35,441 nt of DNA from a virus (IMGVR_UViG_2529293216_000013); one strand, 5' to 3'; counted from the first letter of the stretch, positions 22,877 through 26,153 are shown. Notes: generated from the letters alone by a model not told the origin. Program-made: numbers and translations.

Positions 22877-23293
22877 GTGTCTCAACCACTTTCGGAAATA
22901 TTGACATGGGATGATGAACAATGGGAGGTATTTGTCCATGATTGGCTTATTGTCTGTAAATCAGATGATTACCCGTGGAGCGAACGTTTGGGAGGAGCTG
23001 GAGATAAAGGTAGAGACGTTGTTGGATATAAATCGGATCCTAACGTAGAAGGTTATTCTTGGGATAATTATCAATGCAAACTGTACAAAAAAAGTTTAGG
23101 GTTCTCTGATGTTGTAGTTGAGTTTGGAAAACTTATCTATTTTACTCTGAATGGTGATTATCCCATCCCTCAGAAGTACTTTTTTGTGGCACCCTATGAT
23201 TTATCTACTACATTTTCTAATTTATTGAAAAATAAAAACGAGCTTAAAAAAGCAGTCCTTGATTCATGGGATTCAGCAATTTCAAAAAAATAA
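22877..23293 (+). CDS. Mrr-like PD-(D/E)xK nuclease domain protein, 5' segment of candidate defence effector (LmuA-like); frame breaks in A7 tract
   Basis: GTG start with AAAAAGGAG Shine-Dalgarno 4 nt after int stop; motif GGAGDKGRDVVGY...YQCKLYKK resembles Mrr catalytic core GDGGIDG...QCKRYK; about 28% GC. Confidence 0.5.
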   Translation: MSQPLSEILTWDDEQWEVFVHDWLIVCKSDDYPWSERLGGAGDKGRDVVGYKSDPNVEGYSWDNYQCKLYKKSLGFSDVVVEFGKLIYFTLNGDYPIPQKYFFVAPYDLSTTFSNLLKNKNELKKAVLDSWDSAISKK

Positions 23294-23883
23294 CTAAAAA
23301 GATTGATATTCCATTAGATGATGAAATAAAAAAATATATTGAGGATTTTGATTTTAGTATTTTTTACTCTCTACCCTTATCATTGATTTTAAATGATATT
23401 GCAAATACACACCTTTATTTTAAGTACTTTAACGAGCTGTATGTCGTGAGAATCCCTCCAAATGAAATTCCAACATACAATTCAAAAAAAGAGTCTGTAT
23501 ATGTTAATGCACTGCTTCAAGCCTATTCAGAGCATGGAAATAAAACTTATAGTTCTTTCTTAGAGCTTGATGATCCATACAGACGACACTTTAATAATAG
23601 TAGAAATGATTTTTATTTTGCATCTTCGCTTGAGGTTTTTGTCCGCGAAGTATTTAAAGATGATGTATTCAAAGCATTGAAATGTTACATTTCATCTTCA
23701 ATTGAACCCGTCTTTTATGAAGACCATAATTATGCATTTATTAGGTGTAATGCAGTCTTGAAGCAGGCTGTTCTGACACCAATTGCACATTCAGTACTAT
23801 CAAAAATATGTGAAGCAAATGATAAAAAAGGAATATGCCATCATTTGGTTAATGATGGTGAAGTAATTTGGACGGTGAGATAA
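23266..23883 (+). CDS. 3' segment of the same candidate effector gene (C-terminal domain, function unknown)
   Basis: Frame is +1 relative to previous ORF and fuses with it if the A7 tract at 23284..23290 is read as A8 (...DSWDSAISKKITKKIDIPLDDEIKK...). Confidence 0.45.
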   Translation: MGFSNFKKITKKIDIPLDDEIKKYIEDFDFSIFYSLPLSLILNDIANTHLYFKYFNELYVVRIPPNEIPTYNSKKESVYVNALLQAYSEHGNKTYSSFLELDDPYRRHFNNSRNDFYFASSLEVFVREVFKDDVFKALKCYISSSIEPVFYEDHNYAFIRCNAVLKQAVLTPIAHSVLSKICEANDKKGICHHLVNDGEVIWTVR

Positions 23884-24341
23884 TGGTTAGAATTTATAAT
23901 TCAAGTTTAGAAGTGGCATGTCGAATGGCGAAAGTGCTCGTCGCTATTTATCCTTCTTCATTAAGCCTTGAACGGCTTATTTGTTTTGATTTTATTTTAG
24001 TAAATCTTAAGGATTTTTTACCTGAAGAGATTAGTCTTCATCCTCCAATACCCCGTAGAGATGCTCAGTTAGCCCTAAAACGAGAGATTGTTTTAGAATC
24101 ATTGGCTTTGTTGCAAGGCTATGAACTAGCCTCAAAAATTTATACACATCGTGGTTTTGTATATAAAGCTTCTGAAAAAACATATGCATTTACAAATTCT
24201 CTACATAATGAATATGTTGCGCAGATGGAGCATAATATAAATTTGGTGGTTAAGTTATATAGTGATATTCCTGATGAGCAGTTGCAATCAATTATAAAAA
24301 ATAAAATTGGCAAATATGATATGGAATTTAATTATGAATGA
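23883..24341 (+). CDS. Small middle component of candidate defence operon (LmuC-like position)
   Basis: ATG overlaps upstream stop (TAATG); 3' end overlaps next gene start (ATGAATGA); AT-rich; no recognisable motif. Confidence 0.45.
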   Translation: MVRIYNSSLEVACRMAKVLVAIYPSSLSLERLICFDFILVNLKDFLPEEISLHPPIPRRDAQLALKREIVLESLALLQGYELASKIYTHRGFVYKASEKTYAFTNSLHNEYVAQMEHNINLVVKLYSDIPDEQLQSIIKNKIGKYDMEFNYE

Positions 24342-24966
24342 CAATTTTTTTACGTTCAGAAAAATAAAGGTAACCGGATTCAATAAATTAGATGCTATAA
24401 TTGAATTTGGTTCTAAATTGACTATTTTATATGGTGGTTCTGACTCTGGAAAAACATACATATATTATTTGATTCGATATTTATTAGGGAGTGAAAAACT
24501 AAAAAATAAAGATATCGATCATGCTCAAGGTTATGATTTAGCCTATCTGGAATTTAATTTTCAAGGTAGGGTAATGACAATTGAGAGGTCTCTTCAGGAT
24601 AGCGCCCATTACAGATTATATGATTCGAGCATTGAAAATGTTAGTGAAGCTAATCTGTTGATGGTTTTTTCCAAAAGTGCTTCGTCTAAAAAGAGTTTTT
24701 CATCATACTTTTATGGTAGGTTGAATTTCAAAGAGGCTAAAGTAAGAACAAACTTAAGTAATACTCTTCATAAATTTAATCTTAATAATGTTTTTGAATT
24801 TTTTTGTATTGATGAATTAAGAGTGTTAACTGAGAAGTCGTTAATTCTTTCTGATATTCCTAGCGAGGAGACAAAAAGAAAGTCTGAATTTAAATTCCTT
24901 TTAACTCAGAGAGATGATACTAACTCCTTAGCAGAAAAACCAAATAAAAAAGCAAGATATTTTTAA
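24334..24966 (+). CDS. SMC/Rad50-like ABC ATPase, N-terminal head segment with Walker A (LmuB-like)
   Basis: FRKIKVTGFNKLDAIIEFGSKLTILYGGSDSGKTYIYYLIRYLLG (Walker A GGSDSGKT); ends at in-frame TAA 24964..24966, after which the same frame stays open. Confidence 0.5.
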   Translation: MNDNFFTFRKIKVTGFNKLDAIIEFGSKLTILYGGSDSGKTYIYYLIRYLLGSEKLKNKDIDHAQGYDLAYLEFNFQGRVMTIERSLQDSAHYRLYDSSIENVSEANLLMVFSKSASSKKSFSSYFYGRLNFKEAKVRTNLSNTLHKFNLNNVFEFFCIDELRVLTEKSLILSDIPSEETKRKSEFKFLLTQRDDTNSLAEKPNKKARYF

Positions 24967-24996
24967 AAAAATCAAATTGCAAATATTTATGAGGAA

Positions 24997-25587
24997 TTGA
25001 AAGCGCAATTAATTTATCCTGAATATGATCAAGTCATTGTTTCAAGAGAACTTGAGAAAGTAGAGCAAGATATTGAATCATCGAAAGATATATTGAAAGG
25101 TATTGTTGATGCACTTGATGATAAGAAGCAATTATTAAAAGAGTTAAGTGATGAATTATATTCAATCAGTGACAGGGAAAAATACTTATCATTACTCATT
25201 GAAAGATTTAGTCTTCTTAAAGACCAATACTTTATAGATCTACAAAGAATAGATGTTGTATCACAGGCGAATTTCTATTTAAATAATTTTGCAGATATTT
25301 ATTGTGAGTTCTGTAATACACCGCAAAAAAAAGAAAATGAAATATCATATGATGATTGTTTTTTGTCGTGTAATGCAGAAAAATTGAAAATCAAAAGCCA
25401 GCTGAAAGGATTAATTGAATCAATCGGATCTAATGTTCGCGAACATGAATTAATTATGTTAAGAAAAAATGATGTTAATGAAATTTATCAATCAGAAAAA
25501 AGTGATTTTAAGACGTTAGAAGATAAAAATATAAAACAATACATTCATCTCTTGAATCACTTTATGAATATAAAGACAATCTTTTAA
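24997..25587 (+). CDS. Coiled-coil segment of the ATPase with CxxC hook-like motif (same frame as previous segment, no ATG)
   Basis: Heptad-rich sequence; YCEFCNTPQKK...C...C near the middle; frame continuous with 24334..24966 apart from one TAA. Confidence 0.45.
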   Translation: MKAQLIYPEYDQVIVSRELEKVEQDIESSKDILKGIVDALDDKKQLLKELSDELYSISDREKYLSLLIERFSLLKDQYFIDLQRIDVVSQANFYLNNFADIYCEFCNTPQKKENEISYDDCFLSCNAEKLKIKSQLKGLIESIGSNVREHELIMLRKNDVNEIYQSEKSDFKTLEDKNIKQYIHLLNHFMNIKTIF

Positions 25588-26153
25588 TGGATCACACAAA
25601 ACATAGCATTCTATCTTCATTACAAGATAAAGAAGATGATGTTGACGAACTTAAATACTCCGCCGAGGACTTTGACTCCTTAACAGTAGCTGATTTGTAT
25701 GATATAGAAATAGCGATGCAAGACTTTTTGAATGATATAAATTTTGAAAATTCTAAAGATAACAAAGTGCGATTTGACGAAGATACATATGACTTTAATA
25801 TCAATGGGAAACGCCGAGGAATGTTTGGTAAAGGTACCCGTGCAGTAATGCATGCTATATTTACCATTTGCTTTGCGGAATTTTTATCAAGAAAAGGGAA
25901 TCCATTCATTGGATTTGTTGTGCTTGATAGTCCATTAGTGACGCACTTTGATAAAGATAGAGGGGGTTCTCTATCGGATGTTAATAGCGTCAGTCTCAGT
26001 GATTCATTTTATCACGCATTAATCAAAAGGGACTATAATTTCCAGATTGTAATTCTTGAGAATAAAGGTCCGACGTTCCAAATAAAAATTAATGATGCAA
26101 ATAAAATCCATAACTTAAATAAGAATGGAAGCTCTGGTTTTTATCCTGTTTAA
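25587..26153 (+). CDS. C-terminal ATPase head segment (Walker B-like region)
   Basis: RRGMFGKGTRAVMHAIFTICFAEFLSRKGNPFIGFVVLDSPLVTHFD (hydrophobic strand plus D, then His); ATG overlaps upstream stop (TAATG) with no clear Shine-Dalgarno. Confidence 0.45.
   Translation: MDHTKHSILSSLQDKEDDVDELKYSAEDFDSLTVADLYDIEIAMQDFLNDINFENSKDNKVRFDEDTYDFNINGKRRGMFGKGTRAVMHAIFTICFAEFLSRKGNPFIGFVVLDSPLVTHFDKDRGGSLSDVNSVSLSDSFYHALIKRDYNFQIVILENKGPTFQIKINDANKIHNLNKNGSSGFYPV

Follow-up and report, generated by a model that had tools for sequence, protein, structure and literature searches.

A stretch of viral DNA of 35,441 nucleotides (nt), IMGVR_UViG_2529293216_000013, referred to here in its whole length as the window, includes between nucleotides 22877 and 26153 a low-G+C region that directly follows an integrase gene of a P4-like satellite. 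A preliminary description, made from the sequence alone, considered this region a candidate three-component defense operon composed of a Mrr-like nuclease, a small protein and a Rad50/SMC-like ATPase, in an order recalling that of Lamassu, and took a zinc-hook-like motif and an apparently split ATPase as signs of a divergent or new variant. The question raised by this locus is whether its open reading frames (ORFs) constitute a new kind of defense system or a known one that is no longer whole. Our results indicate that it is very probably a short three-gene Lamassu system with a Mrr-like PD-QxK nuclease effector and a single-hook LmuB, carried as cargo by the P4-like element Sp2, which has been pseudogenized, is decaying, and is not expected to defend.

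Six reading frames and three genes

The 3277-nt operon region is 100% identical in the E. coli O157:H7 strains Sakai and EDL933 and in hundreds of other O157:H7 chromosomes. The Sakai counterpart, ECs_0290-ECs_0293, is located within the feature 'prophage Sp2, P4-like phage', and its ATPase gene carries a pseudogene mark in RefSeq; the annotation of EDL933 lists six ORFs, named as a hypothetical protein, an ABC-three component system protein, a middle component 2, an AAA family ATPase, and two further hypothetical proteins. In the window, too, six ORFs, all on the plus strand, occupy nucleotides 22877-26153. Comparison with the PADLOC, Pfam and NCBIfam profile libraries (Rfam was used for RNAs) showed that the fragments are collinear on single LmuA and LmuB profiles, with Pfam agreeing, and the six ORFs can therefore be considered three genes: ORF1 and ORF2 form a broken lmuA, ORF3 is lmuC, and ORF4, ORF5 and ORF6 form a broken lmuB. 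On the PADLOC LmuA profile PDLC03852 (336 positions) ORF1 covers positions 10-140 (E = 9e-41) and ORF2 positions 141-333 (E = 3.9e-44). The three lmuB fragments match positions 3-199 (E = 8.4e-50), 231-412 (E = 1.6e-21) and 428-608 (E = 5.1e-37) of the LmuB profile PDLC03863 (610 positions), together spanning 3-608. NCBIfam gave no useful match for any fragment. The LmuA-LmuC-LmuB order that had been proposed is thus borne out by collinear matches to the PADLOC Lamassu profiles (E from 1.6e-21 to 8.4e-50). The proposed divergent or new variant is not, since the existing profiles are matched end to end and the locus has already been published; the literature and the PADLOC and Pfam models already cover the system type, the zinc hook, the Mrr effector, the position within P4-like hotspots, and this specific locus as well.

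The operon begins directly after the integrase gene, as had been described, with a strong Shine-Dalgarno sequence: the integrase stop codon TAA (22871-22873) is separated by 3 nt from the GTG start codon of lmuA (22877), and the sequence AGGAG (22865-22869), read from the DNA, lies 7 nt 5' of that start. The tight coupling of the genes also held, in the form of a TAATG overlap between lmuA and lmuC (23881-23885) and an ATGAATGA overlap between lmuC and lmuB (24334-24341); lmuC, the only intact gene, overlaps both of its neighbors and has its own ATG within the lmuA stop. The G+C content is 0.28-0.33 over nucleotides 23001-26000 and 0.41-0.52 in the flanks. A terminator-like hairpin with a 13-bp stem was found by a consensus scan only at nucleotides 26180-26213 of the plus strand, 3' of lmuB.

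Three lesions separate the fragments. Lesion 1, at nucleotides 23284-23290, is a run of seven A residues (A7) short by 1 nt, with a 1-nt gap at 23286 when its DNA is aligned to the loci of Proteus and of the Pantoea type; these relatives have AAAGAAAA or AATAAAA at the site. As a consequence lmuA fragment 1 (22877-23293) is truncated by a frameshift at the TAA 23291-23293, the homologous reading continues from nucleotide 23290 within fragment 2 (23266-23883), and the nuclease domain is parted from the C-terminal domain (CTD). Lesion 2 is a nonsense codon, TAA (24964-24966), at codon 211 of LmuB, ahead of the coiled coil. The DNA alignment pins it to nucleotide 24965, and the codon is TTA (Leu) in O55:H7, in Proteus, and in two of the reference loci described below (L007 and L008). 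Lesion 3, at nucleotides 25525-25529 (about codon 398 of LmuB), is an A5 run short by 1 nt, with a gap at 25524 against three of three intact loci; Proteus has A6 at this site, and the frameshift falls in the descending arm of the coiled coil. Fragment 1 of lmuB (24334-24966) consequently ends at the premature TAA, fragment 2 (24967-25587) keeps the frame of fragment 1, then runs out of frame from 25525-25529 to the TAA at 25585-25587, and fragment 3 (25530-26153) holds the remainder of the gene. The TAATG-type 'coupling' to the last ORF is incidental, because about 20 codons between lesion 3 and the TAA at 25585-25587 are read out of frame. The T-run at 25581-25584 had been a candidate for the second lmuB lesion, the frameshift, and was ruled out when protein and DNA alignments placed it at 25525-25529.

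Mending the three lesions in silico renders proteins of 335, 152 and 606 amino acids, in agreement with the earlier remark that the frames needed correction. Intact counterparts exist. A homology search identified an uninterrupted 606-amino-acid LmuB in Proteus mirabilis (86% identity) and in Pantoea alhagi (73%), and the loci taken as reference were those of P. mirabilis (L006), of the Pantoea alhagi genome (L007), and of two Logan assemblies with identical LmuB (L008 and L009). The two latter encode uninterrupted proteins of 335, 152 and 606 amino acids, exactly the repaired lengths, and over their full length the L008 proteins are 86.6% (LmuA), 81.6% (LmuC) and 73.4% (LmuB) identical to the repaired window proteins. 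In L007-L009 the operon belongs to a satellite located beside proBA with the organization int, 3 nt, lmuA, lmuC, lmuB, delta, psu, sid, followed in L007 and L008 by an alpha primase gene. The intact operons of L007-L009 and Proteus serve as a working reference for the former state of the O157 locus. Both the nonsense codon and the frameshift that divide lmuB are absent from the intact orthologs, and a genuinely split ATPase was rejected on these grounds. In L006 and L007, lmuB is intact, and the sole ORF called for lmuA is a shorter one with the CTD6 domain (9113-9550, 145 amino acids, and 8945-9550, 201 amino acids, respectively), which may be an issue of gene calling at a GTG start or independent damage to lmuA. 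A 344-amino-acid database protein, P0027, has an MC2 (LmuC) domain and, in the same chain, a segment that shares 96% identity with the N-terminus of LmuB, which suggests another frameshift variant, with lmuC fused to lmuB in some assembly.

Components of the system and their relatives

The N-terminal fragment of LmuA (amino acids 1-138) is a nuclease domain of the PD-(D/E)xK type, an assignment that is supported directly. Its model, obtained at pLDDT 91, matched only PD-(D/E)xK nucleases in the fold search, namely Mrr-type, Cap4 and type II restriction enzymes, the FokI match having a Foldseek probability of 0.94-0.97. The catalytic motif, G42-D43-x-G45-x-D47 followed by Q66-C67-K68 (nucleotides 23003-23080), is invariant at all seven residues in an alignment of 35 LmuA homologs, and the domain has the alpha/beta core of restriction endonucleases with the D ... 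(D/E/Q)xK motif. The restriction-endonuclease fold that had been proposed for gene 1 is upheld by these fold matches and invariant residues. That the nuclease is Mrr-like rather than PD-(D/E)xK in general is supported indirectly: the Pfam family Mrr_cat did not match the window's own nuclease domain at E<=0.1, and it was matched by four of the 35 full-length homologs, which are 33-39% identical to the window domain (best E = 1.6e-6). Single-sequence and profile searches of LmuA against the PDB sequences returned nothing significant. Fragment 2 carries the ABC-3C domain CTD6 (Pfam, E = 7.7e-30). The gene thus has the LmuA layout of a variable N-terminal effector and a conserved CTD, the fusion being broken here at 23284-23290.

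The second gene, lmuC (23883-24341), encodes a 152-amino-acid ABC-3C middle component 2 (Pfam MC2, E = 6e-30; PADLOC LmuC, E = 2.5e-36), the small middle component that had been anticipated. The third encodes the Rad50/SMC-like ABC ATPase. Fragment 1 of lmuB contains the N-terminal half of the ATPase head, with a match to Pfam AAA_23 and the Walker A sequence GGSDSGKT (24430-24453). Fragment 2, delimited by protein and DNA alignments in addition to the profile, contains the coiled-coil arms and the hook. Fragment 3 contains the end of the coiled coil and the C-terminal half-head, with a GKGTR motif and the Walker B sequence FVVLDS (25914-25931). All the motifs named in the preliminary description (GDKGRDVVGY...YQCKLYKK, GGSDSGKT, CEFC and FVVLDSP) are therefore present. 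Among the Pfam matches, those to CTD6, MC2 and AAA_23 are above threshold, and that to DUF3732 on fragment 3 is below it (E = 5.3e-5, 23.2 bits against a curated cut-off of 25).

The CEFC sequence (25303-25314) corresponds to a CxxC motif whose cysteines, C324 and C327, never vary among 23 homologs of LmuB down to 22% identity; D532, S533 and P534, and G499, K500 and G501, are likewise invariant. A single LmuB sequence compared with the PDB sequences gave no useful match. The profile of the 23 homologs matched first the LmuB chain 9hqu (1.5e-17), then 9uxl and 9ny5, and then Rad50/SMC heads. The AlphaFold model of the intact Proteus homolog (86% identical) has two half-heads and two helices of about 85-100 residues (233-318 and 339-439), and the CxxC lies within the sole break between them (319-338). 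The model predicts an antiparallel coiled coil with an apical CxxC, a putative zinc hook. Its top fold matches were the LmuB chains 9uxh, 9hqx, 9hqu and 9nyg (E about 1e-14 to 2e-11), with Rad50, SMC and JetC ranking below them; structure prediction, made here on the homolog, agrees with the profile matches in assigning gene 3 to the LmuB ATPases.

The closest known relative is Lamassu-Mrr (type II in DefenseFinder/PADLOC; ABC-3C of Krishnan et al.), which has the same order lmuA-lmuC-lmuB. As in the short Lamassu systems, the locus has a Mrr-like LmuA with CTD6, a MC2 LmuC, and a LmuB with Gx4GKT, hhhhDS, and a single CxxC hook. The mean length of short LmuB proteins is about 600 amino acids, and they have Walker A Gx4GK[S/T], a deviant Walker B hhhhD[Q/S/T/E], and none, one or two CxxC hooks (PMC12663957), and Mrr is among the listed LmuA effectors (PMC12663957). 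The hook, which had been considered not assignable to a described subtype, is consequently both described and common in LmuB. The Lamassu-Mrr system from E. coli SE15 has been validated experimentally (Millman et al. 2022); unlike it, the window has lmuA and lmuB disrupted by the three lesions. LmuB has the fold, a Rad50-like head with an antiparallel coiled coil, of the solved V. cholerae DdmABC/LmuACB (9ny5, 9uxh, 9nyg) and Salmonella enterica LmuACB (9hqu, 9hqx) complexes and of Rad50/SbcC, although it shares only about 14% sequence identity with the solved LmuB chains. The hook is found in the window as in the Salmonella system and Rad50, whereas the V. cholerae LmuB has none, and the solved complexes have a Cap4-type nuclease as effector where the window has Mrr.

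Decay in O55:H7 and O157:H7

The sister lineage O55:H7 permits the lesions to be ordered. Strain RM12579 is 99.7% identical to the window at the DNA level, with nine differences; it has both frameshifts, TTA at the site of lesion 2, and a private extra deletion at 25496. On this comparison both frameshifts arose before O55:H7 and O157:H7 separated, and the nonsense mutation belongs to O157 alone. Between O55 and O157 there are eight substitutions in the 3277-nt operon, seven of which change the protein, and one substitution over the 2000 nt downstream (delta-psu-sid); outgroup polarization indicates that changes gathered on both branches. The pattern of lesions and substitutions across the lineages points to neutral decay and not to programmed frameshifting, phase variation or a functional split. 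Programmed frameshifting was considered as a candidate and rejected on the basis of this pattern. A blastn search of E. coli with the settings for distant matches returned about 310 records, all at least 99% identical, and no diverged or intact copy; at blastn sensitivity no match to the operon was found in E. coli DNA outside the O157/O55 lineage. In some O157:H7 genomes (e.g. NZ_CP089270.1) IS1203 is inserted in the Lamassu remnant, and others have private extra deletions in A-runs at window positions 22920, 24873 and 25325; these insertions and indels represent continued decay or else homopolymer errors of long-read sequencing.

The same locus has been published as an active system. The Domainator paper (NAR 2024) described a cluster of 259 int-psu hotspots of E. 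coli that it termed 'related to Lamassu' and that hold '3 to 9 CDSs', and the 'Lamassu-var' clone derived from them, CP038295 4,116,517-4,120,474, produced smaller plaques of T2, T4, T6 and RB69, at only the highest dilutions (PMC11754643). This interval is the delta-to-lmuA stretch of O55:H7 TB182A (L010), equivalent to nucleotides 22877-26835 of the window. The TB182A lmuA CTD fragment, delta, psu and sid have the same RefSeq protein accessions as those of EDL933, and RM12579 and TB182A share the same five Lamassu-region protein accessions. Compared with the window, the O55 'Lamassu-var' allele lacks the TAA nonsense codon and has the extra 1-nt deletion at 25496. The construct includes the whole delta gene and carries one frameshift in lmuA and two in lmuB. 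To judge from its coordinates, the cloned interval begins at the lmuA GTG, and the construct would accordingly lack the Shine-Dalgarno sequence and anything upstream. The main text of PMC11754643 makes no mention of frameshifts or pseudogenes; in it the system is put forward as an active variant.

In the intact ancestor, two LmuB subunits linked through the CxxC hook would bind, close to that hook, one LmuC and a single monomer of LmuA, with LmuA docked through its C-terminal domain and its nuclease thereby held inactive. Sensing by the LmuB/LmuC heads of DNA ends arising from phage replication would release LmuA, which would then oligomerize through the C-terminal domain into a tetramer and cut DNA indiscriminately, leading to abortive infection. 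In the window the 1-nt deletion detaches the nuclease from the domain that docks and activates it, and only lmuC is intact. Where Lamassu systems have been tested, the ATPase, the effector, LmuC and the hook were each required (10.1101/2025.03.14.643221; Millman et al. 2022), the CxxC hook specifically in the Salmonella system (10.1101/2025.03.14.643221). Function is not expected, because the nuclease is severed from its CTD, LmuB is both stopped and frameshifted, and all components were needed in the tested systems. Judged by its sequence, the locus is almost certainly dead, a relic fixed by clonal descent.

Several points weigh against this conclusion. The cloned, frameshifted O55:H7 allele reportedly shrank T2, T4, T6 and RB69 plaques (PMC11754643), and if that effect is real and comes from the lmu genes, residual activity exists. 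The mechanism outlined above is a transfer from Lamassu systems with a Cap4 effector (PMC12663957, 10.1101/2025.03.14.643221, 10.1101/2025.06.23.660979), and literature and structure searches found no solved complex of a Lamassu with a Mrr effector. In addition, queries with one A added at either run, which 309 of 309 E. coli records matched at only 98.8%, with no A8 or A6 form, see only an added A, and a repair by another inserted base would escape them. One rival reading is a functional 'Lamassu-var' in which the LmuB pieces, the nuclease and the CTD assemble non-covalently, with TAATG-type coupling at 25585-25589, to give weak anti-phage activity. Such a reading would account for the T-even plaque-size reduction (PMC11754643), all catalytic motifs are kept in the fragments, and the stop of lmuB fragment 2 does overlap an ATG. 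That ATG (25587), however, is located 19 codons past the true frameshift, those 19-20 codons being out of frame, and no start or Shine-Dalgarno sequence follows the TAA at 24964. The orthologs are single uninterrupted ORFs, the lesions differ between O55 and O157 and are still accumulating, and the substitutions are nearly all protein-changing. The plaque phenotype itself was limited to the highest dilutions and came from an interval opening at the lmuA GTG, with neither Shine-Dalgarno sequence nor upstream promoter, and the tested Lamassu systems need all three components and the hook. We consider a functional variant of this kind very unlikely, and place at the same low level the broader proposal that the fragmented operon keeps some residual or conditional activity, through transcriptional slippage at the A-runs or through LmuB fragments acting with the free Mrr domain. 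If that proposal were true, residual activity would explain the O55:H7 T-even phenotype, and a broken Lamassu would be a low-toxicity attenuated defense and not a dead gene.

Less probable still is a phase-variable defense, in which slippage at the A-runs restores the frame in a subpopulation or in a fraction of the transcripts, which would then express an otherwise toxic abortive-infection system. Both frameshifts do lie within homopolymer runs (A7 and A5), and some strains have additional indels in A-runs, but the form with one more A at either run was found in 0 of 309 records, the extra indels break the frame further and none restores it, slippage cannot revert the TAA nonsense codon, and at the orthologous sites the runs are interrupted (AAAGAAAA, GAGCTGAAA), so these are not conserved switches. 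The possibility that the breaks are sequencing or assembly errors in genes that are truly intact has in its favor that homopolymer indels are a typical class of error and that a few long-read assemblies have private extra indels. This explanation is the least probable of all and is effectively refuted by the agreement of independent genomes: hundreds of complete genomes determined independently, Sakai and EDL933 among them, carry the three lesions with 100% identity, one of the three is a substitution, and the O55:H7 genomes share both frameshifts. The interpretation that we favor remains that of a pseudogenized, decaying Lamassu.

The satellite and the abundance of the locus

The surroundings of the operon are those of a P4-like satellite, and the earlier placement of a defense-type cargo in its int-psu slot is confirmed. 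Upstream is intS (ECs_0289; 21692-22873, plus strand), a P4-type tyrosine integrase gene according to RefSeq and to Pfam (Arm-DNA-bind_3, Phage_int_M and Phage_integrase). The far boundary of the hotspot is formed by three minus-strand genes (26563-28141): delta (26563-26835; Pfam Ogr_Delta, 1e-16), psu (26841-27392; Pfam Psu, 4.8e-42), and a sid-like gene with a Psu domain (27389-28141; Pfam Psu, 7.1e-10). Pfam analysis of the flanking ORFs identified, beyond the sid-like gene, Ash and then an alpha-type primase. Rfam located isrK (29407-29484) adjoining a C4 antisense RNA (29553-29640, plus strand) upstream of or overlapping the Ash-family ORF; this appears to be an intact immunity region of the P4 type. 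The cargo thus has the setting of P4-like hotspots: the satellite integrase bounds it on one side and delta/psu/sid on the other, and the element also encodes an alpha primase and a C4-type immunity RNA. Psu is only about 31% identical to P4 Psu, and such elements have been viewed as a distant satellite lineage (Domainator paper, PMC11754643).

Other features of the window lie outside the hotspot. Directly after the alpha primase (ECs_0304) there is a 318-amino-acid ORF (32910-33866, minus strand) in DNA of 28-34% G+C, for which searches of Pfam and PADLOC gave no match; the P4-like element could have a second variable slot here, with this ORF as its cargo. A 274-amino-acid ORF (18388-19212, minus strand), labeled 'hypothetical protein' in Sakai (ECs_0285), is a full-length match to PADLOC PD-T4-3, a single-gene defense system (E = 2.7e-140), and is located in the lambdoid Sp1 remnant beside the pin invertase. 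When the window was aligned with Sakai 299,992-327,268, which starts at thrW, only nucleotides 17684-35441 aligned (99.3%), and 1-17683 were not collinear. ARAGORN found no tRNA in the window, though collinearity with Sakai would place thrW inside. Both observations argue for a different arrangement upstream of Sp2 in the strain from which the window derives.

The 259-copy 'Lamassu-var' cluster, reportedly the most abundant of the P4-like hotspot clusters in E. coli, appears to be the pseudogenized copy of the O157/O55 lineage, as suggested by the match of the interval, the copy count, and the fragmentation implied by '3 to 9 CDSs'. If so, the abundance of the cluster would reflect clonal sampling of O157:H7, and the weak phenotype would have come from a construct in which both lmuA and lmuB were broken. 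The locus is over-represented in databases because O157:H7 has been heavily sequenced. Recognizable defense pseudogenes are rare in P4-like satellites, where they account for <1% of P4 pseudogenes (2026 survey, PMC13586616), and the locus described here is a clear, datable case of a defense system decaying in place within a P4-like satellite.

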